A stretch of DNA of 64,000 nt from Candidatus Levyibacteriota bacterium (GTDB lineage Bacteria > Patescibacteriota > Microgenomatia > Levybacterales > UBA12049): assembly GCA_027459745.1 (NCBI GenBank), contig DAIDHL010000002.1, forward strand, positions 191,310-255,309, in the 5' to 3' direction. Within the stretch, counting starts at the first letter, position 1, and each line of letters begins with the position of its first letter. This document shows, in pieces, positions 11,278 to 35,259 of the stretch. A model generated the notes under the pieces. The model did no database searches. It was not told the origin of the DNA and was given only the letters and a program-made list of their open reading frames with translations. Both the position numbers and the translations under genes were made by a program.

Positions 11278-12306
11278 TTATTTCCTCATCCTTAAGTATA
11301 TCCACCTCAATTTGTCTGCGGCTTTTAATATTGGATACAGAAAAGGATTAATGACCAGATCATAACTTCCGATAAACTCTGTTAACTGTGGACCATATCC
11401 TTGTTTGAATCGGTGAAATCCATACCAAGGATCTTTAATATCTGGATTTGGTCCCATTGATCCCCACATATCAAACTTTTTTAAATCTTGTTGCTTGCCA
11501 AATCTTATAGCTTCCCACATCAGTAGATTACTGGCCATGGTTTCACGATTCTCACTACTGGAAGATCCATAAGGATAATAAAGAGTACCATGAAAAGTAA
11601 AAAGTACCCAAGCTGCTAAGGTTTTATTTTGGTAGTTAGCTAAAAATAGGTGATAGTTTAAATGGTTTGATGCAGATGATTTACTTGATTTTTTATTGGG
11701 AGAAAAAATAGACCACTGTAAGTGATGATATTTTTTAGTATGAGCATAAAATTTTTGTCTATTAGTTGTTTCCTGCATGATCTGCCAATACTTCTCGAAT
11801 GCATCGGCTGAATTATCTTCCACAATCTTTACCCCGTGTTTTTGAGCAACTCTAATATTATACCTGGTTTTATGATGCATGTTTTTTAATAGTTCTTCTT
11901 CTGTTTTTGTCAAATCCAAAATGAATGTATATTTTGTAAATAAGGGATGAAAAGAAGGTTGTAGAGTAGAGGTTAAAGCAGGTAGGTTATAATCTTGCAG
12001 AACATTTGGCTCTAGTTGAATATATATACATTTGTTTTCCCGGCCAATCTTGCGTAGTTCTTCTAGCATTTCCTTACTAGGTAATTCGCCTTTTGGTAAA
12101 TAACCAATAGTAAAGTTGGTATGAGGAATCTTATGGATGGTAAGTTGAAAAGCAGAAGCGAGGTGCTCATTCTCAAACAGCCCTTTTCTGACAATTTTTA
12201 TCCCTTGTGCGGCTCTAAATTCTCCCCATTCGTATGATTGCAAAGGATGCGAGACAACTGAATTGTATACATCTCGATCTTGTGATTTTATATCTTTAAA
12301 GGTCAT
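11278..12306 (-). CDS. FemAB/FemX-family aminoacyltransferase-like protein (peptidoglycan interpeptide-bridge family)
   Basis: The N-terminal PLQSYEWGEF signature of the FemABX family (QSWEW) is present. The product is 342 aa, about the size of the FemX short forms. Confidence 0.55.
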   Translation of the reverse strand: MTFKDIKSQDRDVYNSVVSHPLQSYEWGEFRAAQGIKIVRKGLFENEHLASAFQLTIHKIPHTNFTIGYLPKGELPSKEMLEELRKIGRENKCIYIQLEPNVLQDYNLPALTSTLQPSFHPLFTKYTFILDLTKTEEELLKNMHHKTRYNIRVAQKHGVKIVEDNSADAFEKYWQIMQETTNRQKFYAHTKKYHHLQWSIFSPNKKSSKSSASNHLNYHLFLANYQNKTLAAWVLFTFHGTLYYPYGSSSSENRETMASNLLMWEAIRFGKQQDLKKFDMWGSMGPNPDIKDPWYGFHRFKQGYGPQLTEFIGSYDLVINPFLYPILKAADKLRWIYLRMRK

Positions 12307-15148: not shown

Positions 15149-16312
15149 ATGCGTCGTCGTCGTAATCGTGTTGCTAAATTTTTAGGATTGATTATTATAT
15201 TAGTTTTTTTTGCTGTTATTGCACTTGTCGTAGGTTATATATTGCCCTTTTTTGTCCAATACGGTAAGCCAGGAATTCATATTCCCAAAACCACTCCCGA
15301 TAATAGAATAACCTTCTTATTTCTAGGTATCGGAGGAGGAAACCATGATGGGCCACTATTAACAGACACTATTCAATTTGCCAGTGTGGATGTCAAACAT
15401 AATACGATCGATTTAATTTCTGTCCCAAGGGACTTGTGGAACCCTGCTATAAGTCAAAAGATAAATGCTACTTATGCTTTGGCTGAACAAAATCAGACAG
15501 GTAGTGGTTTAGCTGCCGCTAAATCAATAATAAGTAACGTTTTAGGTCAGTCAATAGATTATGGTTTTCGTATTGATTTTAATGGGTTTGTGAAAGCAGT
15601 CGATGAGATGGGAGGAATTGACGTGCATGTGGCTAGGACTTTGGATGACTATGCGTATCCAATTGATTCTATGACTGACGCTACATGTGGACATACCTCA
15701 CAGGAAGTGATTGATTTAACGGCCCAGGAAGCTACAGGTAGTGCTACAGATCCTCAAGCTTTTCCTTGTCGATATATGCACTTGCATGTTCCGGTGGGAT
15801 TAGTACATATGGATGGACAACTCGCTCTGGAATTTGCCCGGTCTCGTCACGCTATGGGTGTTGAAGGAACTGATTTTGCTCGTTCAGCCCGTCAGCAAGA
15901 GATCATTGAAGCTATTAGGGCTAAGTTACTTTCTACGGGCATGCTTCTAAATCCAGGCAAAATGATAGCATTATTTAATATTGTGAGATCCAGTATTGAT
16001 ACAGATATTAATACCAACGAAATTCCTGATTTTATTAAGCTTGCACAACAACTAAAATCTGCTACGATTCATAGCTATGTTATTGATTATTCCGATGACC
16101 CTAATGATCCGGGTAACTTATTAATCCAAGGTAATGCTAATGATTTTGGTGGTGCTTATGCACTTGAGCCTAGAGCTGGTTTTGGAAACTATTCGCAAAT
16201 CCACTCATTTGTGTTATGTAAAGTCCAGAACATTGACTGTCCCACTCCTACACCCAATCCAACCCTTGTTGCAAAAAATAAATTAACTCCAACTATAAGT
16301 ATCAAGCAGTAA
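15149..16312 (+). CDS. LCP (LytR-CpsA-Psr) family cell-envelope glycopolymer transferase
   Basis: An N-terminal TM is followed by ITFLFLGIGGGNHDGPLLTDTIQFASV...DLISVPRDLW, typical of the LCP catalytic domain. Confidence 0.75.
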   Translation: MRRRRNRVAKFLGLIIILVFFAVIALVVGYILPFFVQYGKPGIHIPKTTPDNRITFLFLGIGGGNHDGPLLTDTIQFASVDVKHNTIDLISVPRDLWNPAISQKINATYALAEQNQTGSGLAAAKSIISNVLGQSIDYGFRIDFNGFVKAVDEMGGIDVHVARTLDDYAYPIDSMTDATCGHTSQEVIDLTAQEATGSATDPQAFPCRYMHLHVPVGLVHMDGQLALEFARSRHAMGVEGTDFARSARQQEIIEAIRAKLLSTGMLLNPGKMIALFNIVRSSIDTDINTNEIPDFIKLAQQLKSATIHSYVIDYSDDPNDPGNLLIQGNANDFGGAYALEPRAGFGNYSQIHSFVLCKVQNIDCPTPTPNPTLVAKNKLTPTISIKQ

Positions 16313-16341: not shown

Positions 16342-18642
16342 TTAGAGTGTAGTTTCTAACTTGTAAATGCGAGTATTCCCATCTTGATAAACGACCTTTC
16401 CTAATTGTTTGAAGACAGATTCAGTCATAGTAGGATATTTCTGTCTTTCCAGATCTCCGACGAAAACATAGCTAATATTATATTCTTGTAATAACTGTTT
16501 TACCTGACTTACATTAGTCGATTCATACATAGTTTGAACATCAGTGATTCTAGGTGCTGGGATACTATAGCTTCCTCTCCAAAGCCATTCGTGAACAGTC
16601 CATCCAAGTACTGTGGGAAGTCCGGTATTGGCTGATACTCTGGCGTAATCTGTGTAAGAATCCCCTTGTGCTTCTAATATTACGGGCTGACCTTTAATGT
16701 TTTTATTGATCCATTGAATAGCTGCATAATCGGTAGGATACAAGGGTTTTAAATATGCTGTTCCATCTAATCCATGGTATGTTTGCAAATTGTTATAATA
16801 TGAATTAGTTGCTAGATAAGGATAAAGAGACACCACACCTACGAAAAAGAGTGCTATAACCATCCATATTGTTAGAACTAGACTTGATTTAAGTAGATGT
16901 TTTTTGATAACGTAACGGAACCATTGAGAAAAACGGTATAAAATATATCCACTAGAAAGTGAAAGCATAATAAATGCTTGAAAAACTAATTTAAACATAG
17001 TATTGGCCCGATAGTAAGTGGGATAAATATCTTTAAGATACACAAATTCAGGAAGCAGTATTAAGATAATAGAGAGAATAATTACGGAGACAATAAACCA
17101 ATCAGTGCGTGATCTGTCGATTTTTTTTATTAAAAGTATGATGAAAGATAATGCGAAAAATAAAAATAATCCATAAAGTATTAACAATTGCCACCAAGGT
17201 GACCTTTCACAATGATTCGCCTCAAATAAGAATGGCCCTATTTTGCCGATTTTAGTCAAAAAAGTCGGGGCACAAATAATACCGATACCAGAAGCGAAAG
17301 GTTTAAAAAATACAGAATAAGGAATGGTTATGAGGAATGCAAGTATCCCCGTGGCCAGTAAGGGGTTTATTGTGTCTGTAATCAAAGACGACTCTTTAAT
17401 TTTTTCATATAAAGTTAAAAAACTAAAATTAGAGATATTATTTAATAATGAAAGAAGTTGAGTTATTAATATTACTAAACCAGCAAGTAAGAAGTAAATT
17501 AGTCCGTCCCACGCGTTGGTCATATACATGACGGCCAGTAAGAATCCAATAAGTATTAAATCCTGAAAATTTAAAAACTTATTTGTAAAAGTATTAATGA
17601 TAAATACAGGAATCTTTGTCCATAAAGAAGAATCGGAGTTTTTTTTGACTACAGATTTAGTCGGTTTTCCACGATAAAAAATAGTTAAAAGAACAGCTAT
17701 GGTAGTTAAGACAAAAGGTATATCTAGCACATGACCATGTAGATCGGAAACAACCCAAGAGTATATAGGAAACTCATGTATTGTATGATAGATAAAGCGT
17801 GTTGCATTTGGATACCAATAATTGTTGGGGAAAAGTAAAGGTTGGAAAGTTAACTGCCAGGGAGGTACGGGACTATCATTAGGATAAGGACTAAAAAAAG
17901 CATATATTATATGCAGATTACCGCCTAAAGTTACTAAAAATGCACTTAATAAACCGCCTATAATTACCAACTTACTGAAAACTTCTTTACGGCTAAGATA
18001 AATTAAATTCCCCCCAATAGAAAATGCTGCACTAAAACTAACAGCAAAAAGTGTAGCAATCATAAGATTAAATGTAATATTGGAAGGGATAGCAGTTAAC
18101 TTAGTTAATACTGCAGTCACTAAATGGCCAAAATAGTAATAATTTATGGGTAATGGAGTAAACCAAATATCTCGAGGTGGGAAGTAAGATGATCTTAAAA
18201 TGGAATTTACGAAGCCAAAATCCATAAACTTTTCTAAGCCGTGTATGTCTGGATTGGTCGCTCTTATGTATGACCAACTATACAAACCTATAAAGAAAAT
18301 AATTTCTTCGAATAATGCACTCTTCCAACGACCAGCATTGAGGAGAAAAATATTTTTATGTATAACTAATTTAGCCTCTTTTTTTTTCCAACTAATTCTT
18401 AACAATACAAACACTACTACTAAGACTATCCAACTATTAATACCCGAGAATGGCAATAAATGTATAATGCCTAAAACAAAAATTATATAACTAAGAATAG
18501 CAAAACCAAGAATTTTACTAAAAATATAACCCTTATCAAAGAAATTGATAAAAATCCTTTGAGTAATTGGTAAAAATGTGATACCTATCACAAAGATGAT
18601 AAACCACCATGATAAAAAGTTAGTAAAATCAGAAAAAGACAT
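16342..18642 (-). CDS. Large polytopic membrane protein, DUF2298/YYY-motif family (GT-C-like)
   Basis: The 766-aa product has more than 12 predicted TM helices. The conserved PLPINYYYFGH motif matches the Chlor_Arch_YYY/DUF2298 family. There is a C-terminal soluble domain. Confidence 0.5.
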   Translation of the reverse strand: MSFSDFTNFLSWWFIIFVIGITFLPITQRIFINFFDKGYIFSKILGFAILSYIIFVLGIIHLLPFSGINSWIVLVVVFVLLRISWKKKEAKLVIHKNIFLLNAGRWKSALFEEIIFFIGLYSWSYIRATNPDIHGLEKFMDFGFVNSILRSSYFPPRDIWFTPLPINYYYFGHLVTAVLTKLTAIPSNITFNLMIATLFAVSFSAAFSIGGNLIYLSRKEVFSKLVIIGGLLSAFLVTLGGNLHIIYAFFSPYPNDSPVPPWQLTFQPLLFPNNYWYPNATRFIYHTIHEFPIYSWVVSDLHGHVLDIPFVLTTIAVLLTIFYRGKPTKSVVKKNSDSSLWTKIPVFIINTFTNKFLNFQDLILIGFLLAVMYMTNAWDGLIYFLLAGLVILITQLLSLLNNISNFSFLTLYEKIKESSLITDTINPLLATGILAFLITIPYSVFFKPFASGIGIICAPTFLTKIGKIGPFLFEANHCERSPWWQLLILYGLFLFFALSFIILLIKKIDRSRTDWFIVSVIILSIILILLPEFVYLKDIYPTYYRANTMFKLVFQAFIMLSLSSGYILYRFSQWFRYVIKKHLLKSSLVLTIWMVIALFFVGVVSLYPYLATNSYYNNLQTYHGLDGTAYLKPLYPTDYAAIQWINKNIKGQPVILEAQGDSYTDYARVSANTGLPTVLGWTVHEWLWRGSYSIPAPRITDVQTMYESTNVSQVKQLLQEYNISYVFVGDLERQKYPTMTESVFKQLGKVVYQDGNTRIYKLETTL

Positions 18643-18650
18643 AGTTATTC

Positions 18651-19190
18651 TTACTTAAGCATGTCTGCTAAACTAGATATAGCAGTAATGTTTCGAGTCA
18701 ACATGTGTGTTTTTCTTTGCGGATTCAACCAGAAAAATTTAGTGTTTTTATTTTGTTTGGCAACGTATTTTAATAAATGAAAGTCGTCATCAACATATCG
18801 ATCAATTTTCAGCTTTTTTAAAATATTATCTTTAAACAAGTGTGGTTGTTGGTTAGAAAAATTAAAATACATCTCGTCAAATATCTTATCGAAGCCGTGT
18901 TTTTTTGTTAGTTTGTGGGTGGTTTGTTCCAAAAAACTAAACCTACTAGAGATCAAGTAGAGCTTGTGTTCTTTCTTTGAAATTGATTCAAGAAATTCAA
19001 TATTTTTTTTGATTTTTGGTCTGAGAAATGGGAGATGAATAAGGCTACGCAGGATTTGTTCAGGTCTTGAAGGAATTCTATAGATTAGCACACCGTTGGC
19101 TTTTTTCTTATATAGATGATTGAGCACACTGTCTGGTATGAGTGGTGGATAGTCCACAAATACTTTGTCTAGATCGAAGCCTAAGTTCAT
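18651..19190 (-). CDS. HAD-like hydrolase (putative phosphatase)
   Basis: The N-terminal LGFDLDKVFV fits HAD motif I, hhhDxDx(T/V). The product is 179 aa. This is weak, motif-only evidence. Confidence 0.3.
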   Translation of the reverse strand: MNLGFDLDKVFVDYPPLIPDSVLNHLYKKKANGVLIYRIPSRPEQILRSLIHLPFLRPKIKKNIEFLESISKKEHKLYLISSRFSFLEQTTHKLTKKHGFDKIFDEMYFNFSNQQPHLFKDNILKKLKIDRYVDDDFHLLKYVAKQNKNTKFFWLNPQRKTHMLTRNITAISSLADMLK

Positions 19191-19249
19191 AATTTAATAT
19201 TAAGTATAAAGTATTCGACGTTATACAAACAAGCGATAAATGGCAGTTT

Positions 19250-20290
19250 TTATAATTTAGAAATCAGATCAAGAATCTTAAAGTTCCAGTTAACACGATG
19301 AGTATTGCCTTTACGATTTACTATTTCGTTTCTATGTTCTTTATACCAATTATAACTTTCTAAAAATAACTCTTTGTTGGACTTCTTGGGATGCCAATTA
19401 AGTAATTTTTCAGCTTTGGCTATAGAGACATAAGAATTTACGGGCATGGTTTTATAATGCCAGGCTGCAATTGGAGAAAGGTTTAAAATTTCTAAAATGC
19501 CAAGTATAAATTGGGATAGTAACACAGGAAGACCGGTAATTTTAGCTTTAGACCTACTTTGTTTGATAACATAACCTAGATCACTTTTCCATGATCCATA
19601 TTGTTTTGCACCAATATTAAATATCTGATTGTGTGTTTTGCTTATAAGAGCCTTATAAATCGCCTCTACCACATCTGTCACGGCTAATAATTGATATTTG
19701 TTGTCGCCATTACCAAGAATATATAATCGTCTATTATTATAAATTGCTTCAAACCAAAGAGCAAAAACTCCCAATCTTTCAATACCCAAGAAGGTTTTTG
19801 GTCGAATAATGTTTATCTCCAACCCTTTTTTCATATAATCTTTGCATAATCTTTCCCCTTCAATCTTAGAAATTCCATACCATCCGATAGGATCTAAAGG
19901 GCTTTCTTCTGTTTCTGGTAAATGCTTTGGTACCCCATAAACAGCTGTAGAAGAAATGAAGACAAGTCTTTTTATTTTGTTTTTCAATGCAGATTCAAGT
20001 GTGTTTTGTGTGCCGTCGATATTAACATGAAAAATTACATCTTTCTTGACTTGGATAGGAAGTGCAGCAGCTGTGTGAACTACATAACTATGATTTCTGA
20101 GGGATTTTAACAGTAGTTTCTTATTGCTGACGTCACCTTTAATAAATTTGACTTTTCCAACTAAATCTTTTGCATCAAGATCTGCGATGTCATATAAAGT
20201 AACATCCCAATGAGCTTTTAAAAATCTTCTAGCCAGATGTACTCCTAGAAAACCTGTACCACCTGTAATAAAAACTCTCTTTTTTTGCAT
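19250..20290 (-). CDS. NAD-dependent epimerase/dehydratase (extended SDR)
   Basis: The Rossmann motif VFITGGTGFLGVHLARRF is present. Catalytic YxxxK lies in context (YGISK). The product is 346 aa. Confidence 0.75.
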   Translation of the reverse strand: MQKKRVFITGGTGFLGVHLARRFLKAHWDVTLYDIADLDAKDLVGKVKFIKGDVSNKKLLLKSLRNHSYVVHTAAALPIQVKKDVIFHVNIDGTQNTLESALKNKIKRLVFISSTAVYGVPKHLPETEESPLDPIGWYGISKIEGERLCKDYMKKGLEINIIRPKTFLGIERLGVFALWFEAIYNNRRLYILGNGDNKYQLLAVTDVVEAIYKALISKTHNQIFNIGAKQYGSWKSDLGYVIKQSRSKAKITGLPVLLSQFILGILEILNLSPIAAWHYKTMPVNSYVSIAKAEKLLNWHPKKSNKELFLESYNWYKEHRNEIVNRKGNTHRVNWNFKILDLISKL

Positions 20291-20431
20291 AACTTTTGAA
20301 TTAAGACTTATAAAGAAGATATTGGGCAGAAAATATTTTCTATTTATTAATTATTCTATTGTACAATTTTACCTATTTCAAAAGCAAGAGTAATTGTATA
20401 AATAGATGCATTGAAGGTATAATAAATTTAA

Positions 20432-22030
20432 ATGATGAGTTTAGATTATAAAAAATATTACTTAAGAATAATTGAATTAATGCTGTTATTTACAATATTG
20501 ATTTTGGGTTTAGTAATTAGATGGCAAGGTATAGACACGGTTCCTTACTCCATTGAACAGGATGAATATCAGTGGTCTATAACAGCTTTTCTAAACTCCT
20601 ATAACATAAACTCAAGTGACAAAGGGGCATGGACAGTTAACTATGAGCTTTCTCAGTACTATCCTGTTACTTTTGTGTTTGATAGAATTTCTTTTTATAT
20701 CTTTGGACCAGATTTAGTCTCCCCTAGGAAGATGTTAATAGTTATTAGCACATTATCACTATTAGCATTCTACTTATTTATACGTAGACTATTTCCTGCA
20801 TGGACATCCTTAATAACTTTAACCTTATATAGTTTTTCTACCTACAAACTAATTACCAGTCGTATTGTGGAAGCATCCGCCTATATAGATCTTTTTACTT
20901 TTGTTGCAGCTTATATATTAATAGCAGTGCCGTTCGTTGAAGGATATGAGGGTTTTTCTTTGATGTTTCTAGGAGGCTTATCAGTAGTTTTGGCAATGCT
21001 TACTTATAATCAAGGATTTTTATTACCTTTGGTTTTCTTTATGATATTTGTATTTAAAGTATTTATTAATAGATGCTCAATAAAAGTAGTTAGATTCTAT
21101 TTTATTGCTTTCTTCTTGCCGATTATAGTAGCTCTTCCAAGATTGATATATATTGCCCATCAAGAAGCACTGTCACAAAACTATGCATTAACTTCTCTAG
21201 CGGTTTCATTAAATGGAATAGATCTGCATAAGTTATATGGAAATTTACAGACTGTATTTATAATACTATTCCTACATTCAAGTTATGACATGATAGTAAA
21301 TTATTCTGGGCCAATAGTAAATACTTTAGTTGTTGTTTTAGCATTGATCGGTATTGTGATAGGGTTATTACAGATTAAAAGATATTATCCAATACTATGT
21401 TTCTTCATTTTTATGTCCGTACCGTATCAGTTATTTTTTGGAATTAATGCTCCAAGGTGGTGGTATTTAAGCATAAGTGTAATTTACATCTTAGCAGGAG
21501 TAGTACTATTTAATCTCGAGAGAATATTAAAATGGTTATACATACGCAAAAAAAGAGGATTTCTATACGTATTAATAATTTTATTATTTATTACTATTAG
21601 TTATATTATTCAAGGAGAGGTTTGTAGATACTATTATCAAGCTTTATACAATCCATCCTTTAGGTCTACTGCGGATAGAGAAATGTTTGAAATAACTTAT
21701 AAATATAGAAGTGATTTAGGTAAAAATATTGCGTTCATTTTTTACAATGACGATTGGTATGAGCGAGATTTAATTACGAACCTAGCAGCATCATCATATA
21801 ATTATGTCTTAGCAAATTCAAATAACGCAAATAACATAAGAAATCAATCTAGATTAGCGTTAAACATAATGAATTTAGAAGAGTTTTATGACTATAAACA
21901 AATCTCAAAAATTAACAAGGTAGTAGTACCATATGTTTTATACCCTAAAATAAGAACTTACTTGCTAAGCAAAAAATATAAAATTAAAACTACGTATTTT
22001 GGGAAAAACTTTGACATAATTTTTGATTAA
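20432..22030 (+). CDS. GT-C fold membrane glycosyltransferase (PMT/ArnT-like, GT39/GT83-like)
   Basis: The 532-aa product is polytopic. A DE motif sits in the first extracytoplasmic loop (EQDEYQW). The overall architecture resembles its two neighbours. Confidence 0.4.
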   Translation: MMSLDYKKYYLRIIELMLLFTILILGLVIRWQGIDTVPYSIEQDEYQWSITAFLNSYNINSSDKGAWTVNYELSQYYPVTFVFDRISFYIFGPDLVSPRKMLIVISTLSLLAFYLFIRRLFPAWTSLITLTLYSFSTYKLITSRIVEASAYIDLFTFVAAYILIAVPFVEGYEGFSLMFLGGLSVVLAMLTYNQGFLLPLVFFMIFVFKVFINRCSIKVVRFYFIAFFLPIIVALPRLIYIAHQEALSQNYALTSLAVSLNGIDLHKLYGNLQTVFIILFLHSSYDMIVNYSGPIVNTLVVVLALIGIVIGLLQIKRYYPILCFFIFMSVPYQLFFGINAPRWWYLSISVIYILAGVVLFNLERILKWLYIRKKRGFLYVLIILLFITISYIIQGEVCRYYYQALYNPSFRSTADREMFEITYKYRSDLGKNIAFIFYNDDWYERDLITNLAASSYNYVLANSNNANNIRNQSRLALNIMNLEEFYDYKQISKINKVVVPYVLYPKIRTYLLSKKYKIKTTYFGKNFDIIFD

Positions 22031-22038
22031 AGACTGTA

Positions 22039-23862
22039 TTAAATTTTTTTAAAGATCATGATTTTGGGATGGTCATATACAGTAAATGATTCGTCTGCTG
22101 ATTGGTCATTAATTGGTATATTCATAAGAGGAATTTGCGGACTAATAGAAAACTGTTTAATTTTTTTAAAAATTAAATGTCTTGCACCGGGCAAATTGGC
22201 GAAAGAGGTACCTTGCAATATTGGTCTACCCGCGAACAAATTTTTGTAATACATACTTGCTATGGGATAGCAGCGTGGAAAAGGATATTTTTGGCAGTTT
22301 GCTAATTTTTGTATAGGTACATACAGACGATTTGAGGCAATGATTATATATTGAACTTGTTCTAGTTGATTTACTATTCCCTCCCATTTTTGTTGTGTAT
22401 CCGGATCATATAAAGGTAAAGTTTGCATTTCATAATTTGGAGCTGTACCTAAAGGTAATTCATCATCCCAATGCTCAACGGCAATACCCGTTCCTGAAGG
22501 TAGATTTTGATTAATATATTCTGTCGCCTGAACTCTAGTATTCGGTTGAGAATAAATATGTATGAAACTGAGTGGCCATATAAGAAGTAGAATGACAAAT
22601 GACGGATAGATCGCATATTTTAATAAGTTTTGGGATTTTGACTTATGGATTTGGAATATCGTTAGTGAATTAAGATAAATTATAAATTTATAAATCAGTA
22701 ATGCACCAAAAAGACAGAGTAAAGGATATAGAGGTAACATATAACGCATAAAGCCAATTGCAAACTTACCAACAATAAAAAAATATATCCAAAAGAAAAC
22801 GACTAATATAAATTCGTCTGCCCAAAGTGTTCTCTTATAAATATCCTTATCGGGTTTGTCTTTTAAAGTAGTAGTGCCAGAAAATATTTTACGAATTGAA
22901 TTTAGAGTGATATAAATCGATCCGCTGAACGTAATAATTGCAAGCAATGGCCCTAGTCCCCATAAGAATATATTTTCTATCTCATACCAGTATGGTATTA
23001 TTCCTACATATTGAAGGGTATAAGGAAACGTGAAAGCATTTGTGGTCATAGCGTCTTGTTGTAATGTCTGAGTCATAAATTCATTAAAATCAATAAATGC
23101 ATAAGGTTCTAAAACAAAATACGCTGCAGTCAGGGTAATTAAGATGAATAAACTATTACGTAATAATCCTACAATAAATCGTGGCAAATGATTTAACCAT
23201 TTCTTTGGATGAATGGAATGACTTAATAGCAATAATAAAAAATCTGCAGTTAATGCAATTACTACAGAAATACCTATAACTGTTGCACTAATTTTGGTCG
23301 CTAAGGCAAAAGCAATAGTTAAACCAATCAGAATAGCCTTACCAATGGAAGGTTTGTTATAAAACTTTATTAAAAGATAGAGAGTTATAGTCATAAAGCA
23401 AGTAAGTAGAGTATCTACGGCGTAAAAATGAGAAGTTTGAATAGCAAAAACGCTTATTGAATAGAAAAAAGCGGCAATTAGACCTGCCTTTTTATCTTTT
23501 AAATTCTTCCCCAATAAATAGACAAAAATAATAGTGCCTAAATCAAATGTGGCAGAGATTATTCTCCCCAATAAATTAATTCCATCATAAGTTGATAACG
23601 TGGGTTCTATATGAATAAACAACATACTCATTAACTTAAGTAAATATAAGGGAAAAGAACCGTAAGCAAAGAAATGAGGATTCCAAGGACTTTGTATTGA
23701 AAGGAATTGATTAAGATTACTGGGTAACTGGAGTTGTAAAGTATACAATACGATTGCTCTCTCATCAGGGTGTAAGTGATTGCCTTGATCCCAATCAATA
23801 TCATGCAAGCGAAAAATTGCTGCTAATATAATAATTAAAAATAGAATGATTTTAGATCTCAT
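22039..23862 (-). CDS. GT-C fold membrane glycosyltransferase (PMT/ArnT-like)
   Basis: HLHPDERAIV follows TM1 (the DE motif of GT39/GT83 loop 1). The product has 11 or more TM helices, and its C-terminal soluble domain is about 150 aa. Confidence 0.55.
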   Translation of the reverse strand: MRSKIILFLIIILAAIFRLHDIDWDQGNHLHPDERAIVLYTLQLQLPSNLNQFLSIQSPWNPHFFAYGSFPLYLLKLMSMLFIHIEPTLSTYDGINLLGRIISATFDLGTIIFVYLLGKNLKDKKAGLIAAFFYSISVFAIQTSHFYAVDTLLTCFMTITLYLLIKFYNKPSIGKAILIGLTIAFALATKISATVIGISVVIALTADFLLLLLSHSIHPKKWLNHLPRFIVGLLRNSLFILITLTAAYFVLEPYAFIDFNEFMTQTLQQDAMTTNAFTFPYTLQYVGIIPYWYEIENIFLWGLGPLLAIITFSGSIYITLNSIRKIFSGTTTLKDKPDKDIYKRTLWADEFILVVFFWIYFFIVGKFAIGFMRYMLPLYPLLCLFGALLIYKFIIYLNSLTIFQIHKSKSQNLLKYAIYPSFVILLLIWPLSFIHIYSQPNTRVQATEYINQNLPSGTGIAVEHWDDELPLGTAPNYEMQTLPLYDPDTQQKWEGIVNQLEQVQYIIIASNRLYVPIQKLANCQKYPFPRCYPIASMYYKNLFAGRPILQGTSFANLPGARHLIFKKIKQFSISPQIPLMNIPINDQSADESFTVYDHPKIMIFKKI

Positions 23863-23864
23863 AA

Positions 23865-25598
23865 TTATTTAGTTCGTCTAAAAATAAATATCGTAGGTCG
23901 ATCAAATACACTTGCTGTCTCTTCATAAGAGAAGACAGGATTTCCTAAATATGTAATTTGACAAAAAATATCACAAGGAGTCTCATAAACAACTTTAAAG
24001 TTTAGTTTATCAGACAATAACTGCGTATAGAAATTATGTCCTTGTGGAAATTGTTTTTCATTATCTAACCGTACTTTCATGATTCGTTGGCTTGGTAAAA
24101 TTATCGCCTGTGACTGACTTAATGCTGAATGTAAGGTGTTAGGGTTAGTCTGGTCAGAAGGATTATCTAAATCATAAAAATTGTATAATCTTATATTAGA
24201 AAAATAAGAATTAAAGGGCACAATACCTAAGTCATATACCTCACTGAGAATCTTAGTATTAGAAGATAAAACATTCCTAGCTGCTTGTAGTGCTTGCAAG
24301 CGAGTATCGGTTTCTATATAAGCACTAATTAAAAAACTTAAGGCAAAAATAATTGTGTAAAGTATTGCTAAAATATAAGATGAATTTACCAATTTTATTG
24401 TCAGCTTTTTTTTGGCATTTTCATAAAGTTTAATTAAAGTAAATGAAATCATTAAATAAATAAACGGCAAAGTTGGTACCATATATCTAGTCCATTTAAC
24501 AAAGAAAAAAGCTTGTGACAAAAATATTAATAAGAAAAAAAACACAAGTAGAAAAAGATCAAACGTCACTTGTTTATTTTTTTCAGAAGTGGATTTTAAA
24601 CGCGGAAAAGAATTGCTCAGATAAAACTTAAAGATGACAAAACAAGTATAAAAAAAGGAAAAAACAAAGAATATAGTCAGAAGGGGATTGATTAAAAAGG
24701 GAAAAACATGTAAAAGTTGGAAAATAATGGGAGCAGTATTGTAAAACTCTCCAGTGTAGAAAACGGGTTGTGTACCGAGTGCTACACCAGACTCATAATG
24801 CATGCTATTTAAAAATGAAACTTTATCTAAAAAGGTATAAGGATTAGTTAAAATATAAATATCGGCTACAATAAATAAAAAAATAAATACTTTTAACAAC
24901 ACAAACAAAACATGAAAAAGTCTACTGAAGTTAGTCTTATGTTGTGCGAAATCTTGTATGGAAGACTTAATAATAAGTAAAATTGGTATCGGTAATAGTA
25001 CGAAGGAAGTAACTTTACTTGCACAGAGTATAGCAGTTGTCAGAATCATTAAAACAAAAGGAAGAAATTTATTAGTTCTGTAATACCATAGGGCTGAGCC
25101 AAACATTAAAGTAGAAAAGAGGGTGAGCCACATTTCATATGTACCAAAATGGGCGAATTGTATAAACCCTACACTAAAAGTAGTCAAAATAGCCGAAAGA
25201 ACTCCAGTCCAGGCGTTTTTTATATATTTACCAAGTAAAAATGACAATGGAATTAATATTAAACTACTAATTGCAGCTATTATTCTCAAACCAAGGATTG
25301 CCTGTGTGAAGTTTACTTGAGTACAGTTAGTCCACGATAAATGACAACTAGTAAAAAAGTTTAATACAAGGCTACTAAAGTAAACTAGATAAATAGGTAA
25401 GGAGCCATAGGCAAAAAAATGTGGATCCATTTGGCTGGCAAATTGTAGCCCTACGATAGATGAAGCAATGTTTCTTTCATCGGGATGAAAATAAAAAGGT
25501 GCCCCCCAATTAAGATTATAAAACCTTAGAACAATACCTAAGGCCATCAAAATAATAATAATTGAAGAGGTGCTACTTTTATTTAACAATTTATGCAT
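23865..25598 (-). CDS. GT-C fold membrane glycosyltransferase (tandem paralog of 22039-23862)
   Basis: The product has the same N-terminal architecture and loop motif (YFHPDERNIASS) as its neighbour. It lies 2 bp upstream of that neighbour on the same strand. Confidence 0.55.
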   Translation of the reverse strand: MHKLLNKSSTSSIIIILMALGIVLRFYNLNWGAPFYFHPDERNIASSIVGLQFASQMDPHFFAYGSLPIYLVYFSSLVLNFFTSCHLSWTNCTQVNFTQAILGLRIIAAISSLILIPLSFLLGKYIKNAWTGVLSAILTTFSVGFIQFAHFGTYEMWLTLFSTLMFGSALWYYRTNKFLPFVLMILTTAILCASKVTSFVLLPIPILLIIKSSIQDFAQHKTNFSRLFHVLFVLLKVFIFLFIVADIYILTNPYTFLDKVSFLNSMHYESGVALGTQPVFYTGEFYNTAPIIFQLLHVFPFLINPLLTIFFVFSFFYTCFVIFKFYLSNSFPRLKSTSEKNKQVTFDLFLLVFFFLLIFLSQAFFFVKWTRYMVPTLPFIYLMISFTLIKLYENAKKKLTIKLVNSSYILAILYTIIFALSFLISAYIETDTRLQALQAARNVLSSNTKILSEVYDLGIVPFNSYFSNIRLYNFYDLDNPSDQTNPNTLHSALSQSQAIILPSQRIMKVRLDNEKQFPQGHNFYTQLLSDKLNFKVVYETPCDIFCQITYLGNPVFSYEETASVFDRPTIFIFRRTK

Positions 25599-25635
25599 GA
25601 TTCAATTGTACTTAAAAAAATATATGAATGTAAAA

Positions 25636-26919
25636 CTATTGGTGATTAGTAACAAATTGAGCTATTCTCTCTCCCAGCTCAACTGCATAGTTGGTTCCTC
25701 TATCCCATGGGTAAACTTGTTGCATATTAGCTAAATAAACGTTCTCTAGTGGTGTGGTGAAAGGAGGTATCATTTTACCGTAGTTTTTAAAGAAAATAGG
25801 CTGAGCAAAGGGTGTAGAGAATTTTCTGACGGCAATAAGATCTTTTTTATAATCTGGGTTAATTGTTTTTAAAAAACTATCAAACTCTGACAGAATTTGT
25901 TTTTCATTCATAGAGAAATACCGGTGATTATTAGGTAAGTAGTTACCCAAATAAATAATGTGTTCATTGTTATAATGTTTTTTATCCATAAAATTAGTAT
26001 GCTCAACTACAGCTAATACAGGTGCTTTGGTGTCACAAACATTTAACCAGTATGTATCATCAACAAAGAATTTTTTCTTTAAACGCATTACTAGTACAAC
26101 TGCTCCGATACCTTTTAAATTGATTAACGACTGTTGATAATCTTCAGGTAGTTGGGGAGCAACTTTAATAAAAGCGAAAGACGGTAAAGTTACAATGACT
26201 TTGTCAAAACTCTCGGCCCTAGATTCGGAATGGAGGGTATAAGTTATTAATGGTTTGCCTTCAGTTTTAATTTCATTTAATTCGGTTTGGAAATATATTT
26301 TTCCGCCTTTACTTAATATAGCTTTTGCAAGGAATTCTGCGAAGTGCAGGAATCCTCCCTGAGGATAGGCTAGATATGTAGTACGTTTTTTTATACGAGA
26401 CCAGAACCATGTCAATGCAATTTTATCAGCATATTTGCCGAACTTACTTACTAATAATGGCTGCCAAAGAATCTGATAGGCTTTTTTGCCGATTGTTTTG
26501 CTCAAAAATGCTGATGCTGTTATATTTTCAAACATCTTCCAATAGGGATTGTAACGCAGAAATGCTAGCACCAATCCCATTTGAAATCTCTCAAACATCG
26601 AAAGTTTGGGGAAAGTAAGTAGTGTTAGTGGTGAATCAAGTTGATAAATTCGGTTATTTATCAAAGAAGATGTTTTTGGCCTTTTAATTAAGACAGGATA
26701 TTTCAACTCTTTAGCTAAGTTAAGTATTGAGTCATCATTTGTGAACCAATGATGATAAAAATATTCCAGACTCCAATCCCAGTCTTTTTCTTGATAGCCG
26801 AGTGCTAAGCCACCAGGTTTATGATCTTTTTCAAAGACTGTAACAGTATGGCCGGCGCATGTCAGACGGTAAGCAGCAGCCAATCCAGTGAAACCTGCTC
26901 CAATAATAGCTATTTTCAT
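25636..26919 (-). CDS. FAD/NAD(P)-binding oxidoreductase (amine-oxidase/phytoene-desaturase/UGM-like fold)
   Basis: The N-terminal dinucleotide-binding motif MKIAIIGAGFTGLAAAYRL...VTVFEK is present. The product is 427 aa. Substrate is not assignable from sequence. Confidence 0.65.
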   Translation of the reverse strand: MKIAIIGAGFTGLAAAYRLTCAGHTVTVFEKDHKPGGLALGYQEKDWDWSLEYFYHHWFTNDDSILNLAKELKYPVLIKRPKTSSLINNRIYQLDSPLTLLTFPKLSMFERFQMGLVLAFLRYNPYWKMFENITASAFLSKTIGKKAYQILWQPLLVSKFGKYADKIALTWFWSRIKKRTTYLAYPQGGFLHFAEFLAKAILSKGGKIYFQTELNEIKTEGKPLITYTLHSESRAESFDKVIVTLPSFAFIKVAPQLPEDYQQSLINLKGIGAVVLVMRLKKKFFVDDTYWLNVCDTKAPVLAVVEHTNFMDKKHYNNEHIIYLGNYLPNNHRYFSMNEKQILSEFDSFLKTINPDYKKDLIAVRKFSTPFAQPIFFKNYGKMIPPFTTPLENVYLANMQQVYPWDRGTNYAVELGERIAQFVTNHQ

Positions 26920-26947
26920 AATTTATTTATATTATATGGAATTTGAA

Positions 26948-28384
26948 TTACCTAATAACCCCCTTGGACAGGTAGATGAGCAGCCCGCCAAGTATAACAG
27001 GAATTAGCGCAATTATCATACTGGTTGTAGCAGAATCACTTCCAGTCACAGGTGTGCCTGTGAGGTGCGGAGTGTTTGTAATACTTGCTTGAGCAATAAC
27101 ATTGCTTGGGACAATGGTGGTAGTAGGAGTAAGGGTTGGTTTAAGGGTAGGGGTGGCTGTAGGCACAATAGTGGCCGTAGGAGTAGGACTAGTTGATGGA
27201 TTAGGAGTAGCAGATACTATGGTCGGCGAAATCGTTGGAGTATTCGTAATAGTTAGAGTTGGGGTTATAGTTGGTGATACTTCCACAGATGGAACCAAAA
27301 ATTGTCCGCCCGACGCATATACATAAAAGGTTGAAGACACAGTATGAGAGAGTCCTAAATTGTCTAATGCGGTAATTGTGATGGTATGTTGTCCAGGAGC
27401 CAAATTCGTAGAAGGAATATATTGCCAATTACCATATTTGTCTGTAGTTACGGAAGTAGAGATTGCATTAGAAGAATGAATAGATATAGTTACGTCTGTA
27501 CCAGGAGCAGCAGTTCCTGCAAAAGTTGGCTGTTGGTCGGCAAAAGCCTGACCTTGGGTGGGACTTGTTATGCTAACATTTTTCTGTACAGTTTTGCTAA
27601 AAGTGGTAGTTGGTAAACCAGAGGAGGAAGCAATATTTGTGCCAGTAGGGATAGTGGCGGAAAAGTCATAATTGTTGCCTAGGACGATGGTGGGCACTGT
27701 TTGGGTCAACCCATTAGGAATAGTAAGCGTGGTTTGTTGGCCGTCAGCTTGGACAAGTAGATAAATTTTAGCAAGAGAAAGGTTTAGATTGTTATTTGTT
27801 GAATTAAGGAAATTAGAACTATCTAAACTGTAACTACCATCATTTGCCACTAAGACAGATAAATCCTCTACTCCAGAAGCAGTAGCATAAACAATAGCTT
27901 CCTGATCTAAAGCTGCAGGAATTATAACTTTCCCCTTTAATTCTTGAGAAGATAGTTTATTTTCTGGAGGCGAAAGGGTCTTTATAGAATAAGGGTGTCC
28001 ACCATTCTCATATGTATTCCCGCCGGATAAGATATTAAAGAGGTAATTTGTATCTGGCTGTAGATTTTTTAATGTAAAGTAATGTAATTTATGGTTATTT
28101 GATGTGTTGGTATTATCACGATCATCAAAAACGACAGTGTTTGCTTGACCTGCTTGTTGATAAGAAATAGTTCCGCTAGTAGATTCTGTCGTTGTGTAGC
28201 TAATAGTAAAACTAGTAGAGCTTAAGTTAGTTATGCGTATGTTCTCAGGTTGTCCACTGCCTGACGCTTGGCTAAAAGGATTTACCTTGTTTTGCGTAAC
28301 AAAAGAGACAGTAAAAAAACCTAGTATTAATAAAAAGACTATAGATAGCCCTGGTATTCTTCTTTCTAAGAATGATTGTTTCAT
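26948..28384 (-). CDS. Cell-surface protein: signal/anchor, Fn3-like domain, Thr/Pro-rich stalk, C-terminal TM anchor
   Basis: An N-terminal hydrophobic signal is followed by the ITNLSSTSFTISYTT beta-sandwich pattern. A long PT-rich linker follows (PTITPTLTITNTPTISPTIV...TPTLKPTLTPTTT). The C-terminus has a hydrophobic helix plus KGVIR. Confidence 0.5.
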   Translation of the reverse strand: MKQSFLERRIPGLSIVFLLILGFFTVSFVTQNKVNPFSQASGSGQPENIRITNLSSTSFTISYTTTESTSGTISYQQAGQANTVVFDDRDNTNTSNNHKLHYFTLKNLQPDTNYLFNILSGGNTYENGGHPYSIKTLSPPENKLSSQELKGKVIIPAALDQEAIVYATASGVEDLSVLVANDGSYSLDSSNFLNSTNNNLNLSLAKIYLLVQADGQQTTLTIPNGLTQTVPTIVLGNNYDFSATIPTGTNIASSSGLPTTTFSKTVQKNVSITSPTQGQAFADQQPTFAGTAAPGTDVTISIHSSNAISTSVTTDKYGNWQYIPSTNLAPGQHTITITALDNLGLSHTVSSTFYVYASGGQFLVPSVEVSPTITPTLTITNTPTISPTIVSATPNPSTSPTPTATIVPTATPTLKPTLTPTTTIVPSNVIAQASITNTPHLTGTPVTGSDSATTSMIIALIPVILGGLLIYLSKGVIR

Positions 28385-28764
28385 GGTAATGGTCCTGATG
28401 GTGTTATAACGACTGGTGTTTGGGTAGGCGTCGGATTGGCTGAGGTGGTTGCATTATTTTCTACTGTGTTCAAATCTTTGAGAAGACTAGAAGAAGATGC
28501 TGAAATAGGAAGTGTCGCTGATAAGTTGGCGGAGATAGTGGCGGAAGGATTATTAATTGAATATATTGGGGTGACTTGTTTTCTGTTTTGTATCAGTCGT
28601 ATTACCGATTGATTAAAAGAGTCAGGAATGGGTTGTACAATTAATTGTAAATCAGGGTTAATAGTAGATGTAGAAAAGATATGATAAATGCTAGAAACAA
28701 TCCAGGCAATCACAAAAAAAAGAGTAGAGTAAAGTAGGAATATTATATTTTTTTGTATTTTCAT
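28381..28764 (-). CDS. Small single-pass membrane protein with S/T-rich disordered tail (PilP-like?)
   Basis: The 127-aa product has an N-terminal TM helix. It is translationally coupled (4-bp overlap) to the downstream surface protein. Confidence 0.35.
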   Translation of the reverse strand: MKIQKNIIFLLYSTLFFVIAWIVSSIYHIFSTSTINPDLQLIVQPIPDSFNQSVIRLIQNRKQVTPIYSINNPSATISANLSATLPISASSSSLLKDLNTVENNATTSANPTPTQTPVVITPSGPLP

Positions 28765-28770
28765 AAGTAA

Positions 28771-29439
28771 TTAATTCTCTGAATATCCATATAATAATAC
28801 AGTTAAAGTTAGCGCGTTATCTGCAGGATTTTTAGATATTTCCAAAGAATGAATAGTCACAATCCTTTGTATTTGTACAATTTGACTTAGAAAATTCTGC
28901 ATATCTTGATAGCTTCCTTCAAAAGAGATAGACACAGCAAAAGTAGAAACATTGGCTGGTAGGTTCGATTCAGTACTATTCTTAACTGGTGAAATTGAAA
29001 GAGATTTTTGTACGAGGTTGTTAGCCTGACCTGTCGCTTGGATATCAGCTGCTAAGCCTTCTATCTCTGATGACTTGGGAATAGCATAGAATATCTCATT
29101 AAACACAGGCTGTGTCAGTAAATTTGTATATTGAGTTTGTAAGGAATGTAGAGCAGCTTTTTTTGTTTGTAATTGTTGAAATATTTGTTCTGCGTCACTA
29201 AGCTGTTTTTGTAAATCTACGACAGTCGATAAGGTGGGATAAATCGCAAAGATTGCTGCTAAAATTAAAGCTGACAGAGTCAAAAGAGTTTCTAAATAAT
29301 CTTGTGTTTTTTTCTTGCGTAAATCGGGCAAAATATGGATAGTAGAGAGGTACCTCCTTCTGTGAATAGATTCAAGGTTTTTCTCGTGTTGTGTCTTAGA
29401 TTTATCTGTGTCTGGATTTATTGGCTTTATATCTGGCAT
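28771..29439 (-). CDS. PilO-like bitopic membrane protein (cytoplasmic N-term, TM, coiled coil, periplasmic domain)
   Basis: The call rests on architecture only: TM LLTLSALILAAIFAIYPTL, then coiled coil LQKQLSDAEQIFQQLQTKKAALHSLQ. Confidence 0.3.
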   Translation of the reverse strand: MPDIKPINPDTDKSKTQHEKNLESIHRRRYLSTIHILPDLRKKKTQDYLETLLTLSALILAAIFAIYPTLSTVVDLQKQLSDAEQIFQQLQTKKAALHSLQTQYTNLLTQPVFNEIFYAIPKSSEIEGLAADIQATGQANNLVQKSLSISPVKNSTESNLPANVSTFAVSISFEGSYQDMQNFLSQIVQIQRIVTIHSLEISKNPADNALTLTVLLYGYSEN

Positions 29440-29447: not shown

Positions 29448-29969
29448 TTAGTTTGTTGATATATTTAAAATCGCACTTACCTGTCCAGTTGAAATTTTGT
29501 TCTGAATATTTTCGATATTTATATCTGTAACATATCTAAGCTGTTTAATACTTGTAACAAAAGCATTAAGCTGCCCAATTGAATTGGTTGAAATAACAGC
29601 CAATTCTGATTTGTCAGAGATAGAAATATCAGTAAATGTAATGTTACCTTTTGCTACATCAATCAAGTCTTTTAATCGAGTTATACCGGTAGAAGAAGTA
29701 TTGCTTATTTGCCCAATAAGTTGAAGTCTTGCCTGCAAGTTGCGAAATAGAGTTTCAGAGTCAGACATTGCTTTAACAATAATCTTATCGTTTTGTATTT
29801 GATCGTGTAAGTTAGTAAGCCTGTAATCAACAGTAAATCTATACAAAAATGCAACTAATGCTACAGAATATGTAAGCATGATAACCATACGCCCATATGT
29901 GAGCGTCCATTGTACTATGCGGTCTATAACATTACTTTGTTGTTCTTGAAAGAAATTTATTGAACTCAT
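29448..29969 (-). CDS. PilN-like bitopic membrane protein
   Basis: A short N-terminal tail is followed by a TM (MVIMLTYSVALVAFLY) and a coiled coil. It is the first gene of a coupled four-gene operon. No pilM is adjacent. Confidence 0.3.
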   Translation of the reverse strand: MSSINFFQEQQSNVIDRIVQWTLTYGRMVIMLTYSVALVAFLYRFTVDYRLTNLHDQIQNDKIIVKAMSDSETLFRNLQARLQLIGQISNTSSTGITRLKDLIDVAKGNITFTDISISDKSELAVISTNSIGQLNAFVTSIKQLRYVTDINIENIQNKISTGQVSAILNISTN

Positions 29970-32820: not shown

Positions 32821-33411
32821 TTATAGTCTTTTATATGCAGCTATTATTCTTTGTACAAAAGTGAAAGCAGAGAGAAGAATTAGCATAACAAATACTGCTT
32901 CAAGCAAATTTAAGTTTAAAACTTTAAAATTAGGCCAGAGTATATAAGCAATGAGTGAAAAAAAGATGATAGCCAAGCGTTCGGTTCTTTCTATTAATCC
33001 AACAGCAAACACTTGTTTGGCTCCGCTAGCTAGTTCTGCTCGTGATCGGGAATAACTGACTAGATAAGAAATGGCAATTAAGAATACACAAATTTGCCAG
33101 CTTACAATATTGGCAAAAGCAAAGCTCATAATCAGGAAAAAATCAGCGATTCTATCAAATGTTGAATCCATAAAGCCGCCAAAGGCAGTCTTTTTATTAA
33201 ATCTTTTGGCTACTGCACCATCCAAAGTATCAAAAGCGTTGCCCAGAAATGCCACTAAAGCCCAGCCATACTGATGATTTAAAATTAAAATAAAGAACAG
33301 AATTGATGGTACAATACCAATGAGAGTTAAGAGGTTGGGAGAAACTGAGGCAAGAGGAGAGACAAGTTTTTGGGTAGTTTTATCGATGGTTGGTTTAAAA
33401 ATTGATAACAT
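32821..33411 (-). CDS. CDP-alcohol phosphatidyltransferase (PgsA-like)
   Basis: The full family signature D-G-x2-A-R-x8-G-x3-D-x3-D is present: DTLDGAVAKRFNKKTAFGGFMDSTFDRIAD. The product is 196 aa and polytopic. Confidence 0.75.
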   Translation of the reverse strand: MLSIFKPTIDKTTQKLVSPLASVSPNLLTLIGIVPSILFFILILNHQYGWALVAFLGNAFDTLDGAVAKRFNKKTAFGGFMDSTFDRIADFFLIMSFAFANIVSWQICVFLIAISYLVSYSRSRAELASGAKQVFAVGLIERTERLAIIFFSLIAYILWPNFKVLNLNLLEAVFVMLILLSAFTFVQRIIAAYKRL

Positions 33412-33542
33412 AAAAATATTAGTTGTTTTAGCGACAAAGTAGATCTTGATGGGGTCCTTCGACTCCTTCGTAAACTCGGTCGCTCAGGATGACAAAAAGA
33501 ATTTAAAGATTATAATTCTTTCTGTCAATTGCTTATGCTTAT

Positions 33543-34232: not shown

Positions 34233-34247
34233 ATTCAGTATGACAGT

Positions 34248-35168: not shown

Positions 35169-35259
35169 TTAGTAGGAAGGTCGAGTCATGACCTAAGTGG
35201 AAATTAGAAATTTTGTTCCGGCTCGCTTGAACTAGGTTAAGGATTATTAATACGAATCT

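Follow-up and report, generated by a model that had tools for sequence, protein, structure and literature searches.

A probable cell-surface glycosylation locus with a variable GT-C cassette beside a pilN-pilO array in Levybacteria-type Microgenomates

A 64,000-nucleotide (nt) stretch of DNA from a Candidatus Levyibacteriota bacterium (contig DAIDHL010000002.1; the whole stretch is referred to as the window) carries, between positions 16342 and 29969, a run of genes for polytopic membrane proteins, sugar enzymes, a flavoenzyme and a Pro/Thr-rich surface protein. The region probably serves to glycosylate the cell surface, as a locus of a type that is known in general outline. We assign a probability of about 0.55 to the reading that it consists of two neighboring envelope modules conserved in Levybacteria-type Microgenomates, the second being a lipid-carrier-dependent extracytoplasmic glycosylation pathway. 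The first module would be a type IV pilus alignment-type array of pilN, pilO, a small open reading frame (ORF) and the gene of a 478-amino-acid (aa) protein, ending in a wall-spanning stalk protein. The second would be delimited by a flavoenzyme gene at one end and a DUF2298 gene at the other, enclosing a cassette that varies between genomes. An earlier note on this DNA had described one contiguous cluster; all ORFs that it named lie at the coordinates it gave, and its DUF2298, extended SDR and LCP (LytR-CpsA-Psr) assignments were confirmed via Pfam and NCBIfam. The genes are in place as a run, but the 532-aa gene lies on the opposite strand and the 478-aa gene belongs to the pilN-pilO array.

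Window ORFs were assigned to families with Pfam and NCBIfam hidden Markov models (HMMs). Two adjacent cassette genes encode GT-C-type membrane glycosyltransferases of 607 aa (22039..23862, minus strand) and 577 aa (23865..25598, minus strand), which by their sequences belong to the GT-C superfamily. The 607-aa protein, harboring the motif HLHPDERA, is PMT_2/PMT-like and matches PMT_2 at 3e-12 (47.4 bits, cut-off 26.1) and PMT at 4e-8 (33.6 bits, cut-off 22.7). No Pfam match was obtained for the 577-aa protein (motif YFHPDERN; about 10 transmembrane segments and a C-terminal extracytoplasmic domain), which is paralogous over its full length to the 607-aa protein (26% identity, E 5e-33); 9-10 transmembrane segments were counted in the two proteins. 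Both motifs and the paralogy had been pointed out in the earlier note, as had the Pro/Thr linker of the surface protein, and all are present as quoted. Within the HPDER signature that follows the first transmembrane segment, H31, D33 and E34 are invariant in 39 aligned members of the 577/607 family. Against the Protein Data Bank (PDB), the family profile retrieved only GT-C chains, with weak scores (STT3A, 0.016; ArnT, 0.05), and the 607-aa sequence on its own retrieved nothing. Canonical PMT (GT39) membership was rejected: none of the proteins matches PMT_4TMC at E <= 0.01, no NCBIfam PMT model is matched by the GT-C proteins, and the 607-aa protein alone passes the threshold of PMT (PF02366).

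The conserved end of the second module is a 766-aa DUF2298/Chlor_Arch_YYY protein (16342..18642, minus strand; PF10060, E 2.4e-102; TIGR03662 Chlor_Arch_YYY, 525 bits) with about 11 or more transmembrane segments and a C-terminal extracytoplasmic domain. AlphaFold2 models of this protein and of the flavoenzyme were compared with the PDB via Foldseek. The top five matches of the DUF2298 model (predicted local distance difference test, pLDDT, 78; predicted template-modeling score, pTM, 0.87) are AglB, AftA twice and PglB twice, all with a probability of 1.0 and E values between 7e-5 and 4e-3 (AglB 3wak, 7e-5; AftA 8if8, 2.6e-4, TM-score 0.54; PglB, 2e-3), followed by Pmt1/2 and Pmt4. Judged by this model, DUF2298 is predicted to have a GT-C fold that is nearest to oligosaccharyl- and arabinosyl-transferases. 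A DUF2298 profile matched no PDB sequence; NYYYFGH and GWTVHEWLWRG are invariant in the family, and WWDXG is absent. Direct hhalign comparison of DUF2298 with the 577/607 family gave only 63%, and this for an alignment confined to the final transmembrane segment and the first part of the C-terminal domain. A 545-aa family found in cassettes of related loci, for which Pfam gave no match, aligns with an hhalign probability of ~95% to both DUF2298 (464 columns) and the 577/607 family (286 columns). By bridging the two, it places all of them in one superfamily. Three of the four GT-C enzymes that had been counted in the region, the 607-aa, 577-aa and DUF2298 proteins, are thus retained, whereas the fourth is borderline.

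This fourth candidate, a divergent polytopic protein of 532 aa (20432..22030, plus strand) with about 10 transmembrane segments and a DE pair (SIEQDEYQW) after the first of them, scores 25.8 bits against the PMT_2 cut-off of 26.1 (E 1.4e-5) and aligns to the 577/607 family with an hhalign probability of just 7.6%; it is probably a GT-C member. The gene is strain-specific: the related loci examined contain no homologue of it at E < 1e-5. Nowhere in the window is G+C lower than in the stretch that holds this gene (29%), and the gene runs opposite to its neighbors. In the closest relative (L001, whose flavoenzyme is 81% identical), a 505-aa PMT_2 gene occupies the same position, is co-directional and is not orthologous to the 532-aa gene. 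The low G+C content, the inversion, the lack of homologues and the unrelated gene in L001 make the 532-aa gene look like a recent replacement inside the cassette.

Related loci were collected by a scan with a flavoenzyme alignment (80 loci, one genome per species) and by exact look-ups (8 loci), and the ORFs of all 88 were clustered for synteny comparison. A common order was found in 38 loci of the Levybacteria type: EF-G or MurJ and S20, then pilN-pilO-small ORF-478-aa gene-FAD-cassette-DUF2298, then the convergent LCP and TIM genes, followed by UvrD and FemAB, where FAD denotes the gene of the flavin adenine dinucleotide-dependent flavoenzyme. Such recurrence shows that the arrangement is not a chance juxtaposition. 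FAD and DUF2298 form the constant core around the cassette, for which at least eight architectures occur in the 38 loci. Genes found in cassettes are those of the 577/607 type (one or two per locus), further PMT_2 genes, the 545-aa GT-C relative, SDR, HAD, GT4 or methyltransferase genes. Two 577/607-type genes are combined with SDR and HAD, in some cases together with another PMT_2 gene, or with a GT4 gene in place of an SDR; other loci carry a single 577/607-type gene, a methyltransferase next to the 545-aa GT-C relative, or an empty cassette (L016). FAD has a GT-C-like gene at most 300 nt away in 31 of the 38 Levybacteria-type loci, in 10 of 23 loci from other candidate phyla radiation (CPR) bacteria and in none of 22 from Chloroflexi. 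In some other Microgenomates, at loci devoid of pil genes, FAD stands amid GtrB/ArnC-like GT2 genes (with C-terminal transmembrane segments), SDR, GT4, methyltransferase and PMT_2-like genes. In Anaerolineae (Chloroflexi), the usual upstream neighbor of FAD is a flippase-like LPG_synthase_TM gene (E 6.5e-53) and UDP-glucose dehydrogenase is often encoded downstream; one such locus (L070) has two PMT_2 genes.

Several further observations were made in these loci. Many metagenome-assembled genomes (MAGs) titled 'uncultured Gammaproteobacteria bacterium' (L006, L012, L020, L024 and others) display the full Levybacteria-type synteny, with flavoenzymes 57-66% identical to that of the window, and their titles are evidently taxonomic mislabels. 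One Levybacteria MAG (L034) has its 577/607-type genes at 11-16 kb in fragments of 401, 336 and 183 aa, which suggests frameshifts, cassette decay or assembly errors. In Roizmanbacteria-type loci (L040-L042, L046), FAD has a different setting and is followed by the gene of a conserved 516-aa protein that, by eye, appears to join an N-terminal VKOR-like part of four transmembrane segments (CxxC) to a dihydroorotate-dehydrogenase-like domain; a protein of 345-351 aa with eight transmembrane segments accompanies it in L041, L042 and L046.

The flavoenzyme itself is an oxidoreductase of 427 aa (25636..26919, minus strand), cytoplasmic and devoid of transmembrane segments. It matches Pfam Amino_oxidase (5e-24) and NCBIfam PRK07233 (411 bits), a family annotated as 'hypothetical protein'. 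Identity amounts to 60-81% with its closest database homologues and to 41-66% over Microgenomates and Chloroflexi loci. Protoporphyrinogen oxidase (PPOX), the uncharacterized archaeal oxidoreductases 3ka7 and 3nrn, phytoene desaturase (PDS) and monoamine oxidase (MAO) lead the Foldseek matches of its model (pLDDT 79.6). Those of these neighbors that use hydrophobic substrates at membranes would be in keeping with a lipid-linked substrate for the modeled enzyme. The amine-oxidase fold named in the earlier note is thereby confirmed, but not the resemblance to UDP-galactopyranose mutase (UGM): a GLF domain is absent, the profile matches UGM only at its Rossmann part (residues 2-94), and UGM ranks just 43rd in Foldseek, with PPOX, 3ka7, 3nrn, PDS and MAO all placed higher. 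Membership in DprE1/DprE2 was likewise rejected, as the fold is of the amine-oxidase/PPOX class and not of the vanillyl-alcohol oxidase (VAO) type (FAD_binding_4). An SDR gene is present in only 14 of the 38 Levybacteria-type loci that keep FAD, so that the DprE1/DprE2 pairing is left as a mechanistic analogy. A search of the literature on DUF2298, Chlor_Arch_YYY and PRK07233 found no functional work.

Two further enzymes are encoded in the cassette of the window. An extended SDR of the sugar epimerase/dehydratase type (346 aa; 19250..20290, minus strand) matches Pfam Epimerase at 8.5e-40 and lies below the cut-off of every NCBIfam equivalog. The HAD-like protein of 179 aa (18651..19190, minus strand), a putative cytoplasmic phosphatase, holds up at the motif level only: HAD motifs I-IV are present, but no HMM match is significant (best HAD IIIB, E 0.044) and a PDB profile search was empty. 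All 18 orthologues retain D6, D8, K120, D134 and D135, and motif II (LISSR) is conserved in their consensus, outside the invariant and nearly invariant positions. The HAD-like gene occurs only in loci with 577/607-type genes. Except for one strongly hydrophobic SDR helix (residues 251-269, near the C-terminal third), the FAD, SDR and HAD proteins have neither signal peptide nor transmembrane segment, so that donor synthesis on the cytoplasmic side would fit. The best named NCBIfam neighbors, both below cut-off, are the hopanoid-associated HpnA for the SDR and HpnE for the flavoenzyme; this likeness and the SDR helix are possibly a hint of membrane association or of a lipidic substrate, or a coincidence.

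Upstream of the flavoenzyme gene lies the first module. Its first gene encodes a PilN-like protein of 173 aa (29448..29969, minus strand) with one transmembrane segment and an N-terminal INFF/INL motif. The window copy has no Pfam match, and the Pfam PilN model is matched by 19 of 26 orthologues (best E 1.1e-9). In the related loci, this gene always precedes that of PilO, which in the window has 222 aa (28771..29439, minus strand; Pfam PilO, E 1.4e-16). PilM is not in the array, and the upstream neighbor is EF-G on the other strand. A small membrane protein of 127 aa (28381..28764, minus strand), with an N-terminal transmembrane segment and a Ser/Thr/Pro-rich tail, has no Pfam or NCBIfam match; its ORF is kept between pilO and the 478-aa gene in 31-32 syntenic loci. 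The gene of the 478-aa protein (26948..28384, minus strand) overlaps this ORF by 4 nt and, following it, pilN and pilO, is thus the last gene of the array.

The 478-aa protein combines an N-terminal transmembrane segment or signal with two beta-sandwich domains (Pfam fn3/Pur_ac_phosph_N and the Ig-like Big_13), a Pro/Thr linker at residues ~368-425 (Pro plus Thr up to 68% in 25 aa) and a putative C-terminal sorting signal. In a scan of the window proteins with 25-residue windows, dense Pro/Thr stretches were found only in this protein and in an 897-aa DUF5667 protein (41200-43893, minus strand), where the stretch lies at residues ~656-690. A 1115-aa DUF5667 protein is encoded ~4 kb upstream of a GT2-SDR-FAD cluster in Microgenomates GW2011_GWC1_41_8 (L002-L005, 2305-5652). 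The 478-aa protein ends in TPVTGS, a hydrophobic segment (approximately 454-472) and SKGVIR. P.TG occurs within the last 50 aa of 15 of its 36 orthologues, compared with 0.5% of control ORFs; forms such as LPPTGS, LPKTGS and LPVTGS are seen, and some orthologues have a degenerate motif. A broader motif is found in 28, a Pro/Thr stalk in 33 and a basic tail in 23 of the 36. The C-terminus is therefore probably an LPXTG-type sortase sorting signal. The description as a Pro/Thr-stalk surface protein stands, while the transmembrane anchor assigned to it earlier looks like this sorting signal.

Within the region, genes are packed in an operon-like manner, with gaps of 2-59 nt, one 4-nt overlap and shared orientation, and this tight spacing and co-orientation suggest operons. 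A promoter and terminator scan of the window gave no excess over shuffled sequences, and operons were not delimited by it; a tRNA and Rfam search of the window gave no match.

What the analysis shows are the families of the genes, the GT-C folds, the paralogy, the synteny and how much the cassette varies; the type of donor, the order of steps and the acceptor are inferred. SDR, HAD-like protein and flavoenzyme, together with a GT2 encoded elsewhere, would make or modify polyprenyl-phosphate-linked sugars in the cytoplasm. These donors would be flipped across the membrane, the GT-C enzymes would transfer the sugars at its outer face, and the variable cassette would determine a strain-specific glycan. 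Actinobacterial PMT enzymes typically have Pro/Thr-rich linkers as their acceptors. Proteins with Pro/Thr stalks and C-terminal anchors are encoded directly upstream of FAD in the form of the 478-aa family, of PKD-domain proteins and of a 362-aa Pro/Thr protein, and in more distant Microgenomates (L086, L087, L045, L050) other Pro/Thr-rich anchored proteins lie between the 478-aa and FAD genes. In Streptococcus mutans, the LPXTG adhesin gene cnm, whose product has glycosylated Thr-rich repeats, is co-transcribed with pgfS, the genes of two paralogous YfhO-like proteins and an epimerase gene (10.1101/2022.10.10.511621). On account of this recurrence and this precedent, we tentatively rank first among acceptors, at less than even odds, Ser/Thr residues in the Pro/Thr stalks by which surface proteins such as the 478-aa protein are anchored; a wall or membrane glycopolymer is about as probable an acceptor, or only slightly less so, and pilins are an improbable one. 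Of the O-glycosylation system that had been predicted, the GT-C-rich region, the sugar enzymes, the Pro/Thr-stalk neighbor and the S. mutans precedent remain, and the separate occurrence of the modules speaks against a dedicated pairing with the co-encoded protein. Doubtful, in our view, is a more far-reaching version, in which a PRK07233-type flavoenzyme and DUF2298 would be the conserved core of an undescribed glycosylation pathway common to Chloroflexi and Microgenomates, with the flavoenzyme altering either the lipid carrier or the lipid-linked sugar, and a hypervariable GT-C cassette would diversify the glycan on sortase-anchored Pro/Thr-stalk proteins that go with the type IV pilus machinery in these episymbiotic-type bacteria.

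A number of observations weigh against the two-module glycosylation reading. No GT2 polyprenyl-phosphate sugar synthase was found among the 60 ORFs scanned within the 64 kb, so that the donor synthase must be encoded elsewhere in the genome, and neither a flippase nor a sortase was found there. The flavoenzyme has no characterized relative and a role in glycosylation is suggested by its gene context alone; the Foldseek TM-scores of DUF2298 are modest (0.3-0.54), and the 532-aa protein stays below its cut-off. One locus (L088), which additionally carries two Pro/Thr-rich secreted proteins, keeps pilN-pilO-small ORF-478-aa gene with the Pro/Thr stalk and has no FAD, GT-C or DUF2298 genes, and other Microgenomates have the FAD/GT-C/DUF2298 module but not the 478-aa gene, so that a dedicated pairing of enzyme and acceptor finds no support here. 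Finally, S20, MurJ, EF-G, TIM and UvrD in the flanks are as syntenic as the cluster itself, and the adjacency may thus be inherited rather than functional.

This last point, taken to its end, gives the explanation that there is no single system, and that separate envelope functions stand in a syntenic run kept by conserved gene order in Microgenomates. FAD occurring alone (L016), the pil/478-aa array occurring alone (L088), and the frequent position of FAD beside MiaB, DnaA and other unrelated genes in Chloroflexi agree with it; yet FAD adjoins GT-C or flippase-like genes in differing orders in two phyla, and the close packing and co-orientation suggest operons, which leaves this explanation the least probable of those considered. 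Hardly more probable is a TfpW-like glycosylation of type IV pilins, in which a FAD oxidase, an SDR reductase and a phosphatase would supply a lipid-linked sugar following a DprE1/DprE2/Rv3807c-like logic. The module lies directly downstream of pilN-pilO, and its set of FAD oxidoreductase, SDR, phosphatase and GT-C parallels the TfpW/D-arabinofuranose (D-Araf) system (10.1101/2020.04.19.049825). The array, however, has no pilin gene and the window no UbiA-type phosphoribosyltransferase, the flavoenzyme has an amine-oxidase/PPOX fold where DprE1 is VAO-type, and SDR and HAD are missing from many loci that keep FAD and DUF2298, so that FAD does not depend on an SDR as its partner.

Considerably more weight falls to a wall or membrane glycopolymer, teichoic-acid-like or polysaccharide, that would be decorated by the GT-C enzymes from polyprenyl-phosphate donors and ligated to peptidoglycan by the LCP protein, the 478-aa protein being unrelated. 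YfhO/GtlB acting on lipoteichoic or wall teichoic acid (LTA/WTA) and AftA/Emb acting on arabinogalactan would be the models. Decoration of wall polymers by GT2, flippase and GT-C is the commonest use of GT-C enzymes in monoderms (PMC5836110, PMC8035078), DUF2298 matches AftA about as well as the oligosaccharyltransferases (OSTs), 23 loci have an LCP gene converging on DUF2298, and the module of other Microgenomates lacks the 478-aa gene. Against this stand the membership of the LCP gene in a housekeeping block whose strand is the opposite one, the absence from the window of TagF-like, Wzx/Wzy or ABC exporter backbone genes, the recurrence of Pro/Thr-rich anchored proteins beside the module, and the finding that none of the four membrane proteins matches YfhO or arabinosyltransferase families at E <= 0.01. 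We consider such a polymer about as likely an acceptor as the Pro/Thr stalks, at less than even odds.

Extracytoplasmic GT-C glycosylation of the envelope is a known kind of process, and several described systems share features with the locus. As in the cnm-pgfS-pgfM1-pgfE-pgfM2 arrangement of S. mutans, the gene of an anchored stalk protein lies upstream of and is co-oriented with genes for two paralogous polytopic proteins and an SDR, and the membrane proteins have extracellular globular domains (those of Pgf being YfhO-like GT-C proteins). Unlike Pgf, the locus has no GtrB-like GT2, its GT-C proteins are PMT_2-like and not YfhO-like, and it adds the PRK07233 flavoenzyme, DUF2298 and the HAD-like protein, is embedded next to pilN-pilO, has a strain-variable cassette and is known here from its genes alone. 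With GT39 PMT enzymes and Ppm1, it shares the GT-C fold, the Asp-Glu pair after the first transmembrane segment (HPDER) and the Pfam PMT match of the 607-aa protein; it differs in the absence of PMT_4TMC, in another C-terminal extracytoplasmic domain, in the 577-aa and 532-aa proteins falling under the PMT thresholds and in the lack of a Ppm1-type synthase nearby. The CsbB/GtlA-GtcA-YfhO/GtlB systems for teichoic acids likewise use extracytoplasmic GT-C transfer from a C55-phosphate-linked sugar in a monoderm envelope (PMC5836110, PMC8035078), a donor that would correspond to the one proposed here, but the window has no GT2 or GtcA and the GT-C family is a different one. Similarities to Pseudomonas aeruginosa TfpW with the DprE1/DprE2 D-Araf pathway comprise pilus genes beside a GT-C gene and the set of FAD oxidase, SDR and phosphatase (10.1101/2020.04.19.049825), whereas the flavoenzyme is of another fold class, there is no pilin or UbiA-like gene, and FAD and SDR are not always together. 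DUF2298, in turn, resembles AglB/PglB/STT3 and AftA in joining a polytopic GT-C core to a C-terminal extracytoplasmic domain, and differs from OSTs and AftA in having no sequence-level match, no WWDXG, motifs of its own and the modest TM-scores given above. What sets the locus apart is its conserved frame of flavoenzyme and DUF2298, the variability of the GT-C cassette, and the connection with pilN-pilO and a sortase-type stalk protein.

The window is chromosomal DNA with a G+C content of ~35%, and its proteins have their nearest public relatives in MAGs of Levybacteria and other Microgenomates/Patescibacteria. Downstream of the region lie genes for EF-G, EF-Tu, ribosomal proteins and SecY. 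On the other side, the convergent neighbor of DUF2298 is the LCP glycopolymer transferase gene (15149..16312, plus strand; Pfam 2.9e-26), which is next to the cluster as described earlier. It belongs to an LCP-TIM-UvrD-FemAB block on the other strand, and its adjacency therefore carries little weight. Genes of this block accompany the locus in 10-23 related loci, a number that varies from gene to gene, and LCP keeps company with TIM, UvrD and FemAB in 18-23 loci. LCP-mediated glycosylation of a sortase substrate has been described in Actinomyces oris (PMC6381275). A GH18 (chitinase-like) gene (35812-36897) and a FemAB-family peptidoglycan-bridge gene (11278-12306) flank the region. By fusA, at 32821-35787, lies a lipid-head-group set of a CDP-alcohol phosphatidyltransferase, a PHP-domain protein, a DAGK/YegS-type lipid kinase and a CarS-like protein (E 3.5e-26), also kept in L001; that a member of the CPR has an archaeal-type CarS (CDP-archaeol synthase family) may have to do with salvage of lipids.

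CPR bacteria live by surface contact, and to our knowledge the glycans of their envelopes have hardly been described. Should the reading proposed here be wrong, the region would still be an ordinary envelope glycosylation cluster. If it is right, it would give a first functional placement to two widespread families, to DUF2298/Chlor_Arch_YYY as a GT-C enzyme and to PRK07233 as a glycosylation-associated flavoenzyme, and the 478-aa protein would be a concrete candidate glycoprotein beside pilus genes. A conserved frame around a variable glycosyltransferase cassette is what one would expect if diversifying selection, such as that from phage or host recognition, acted on a surface glycan.

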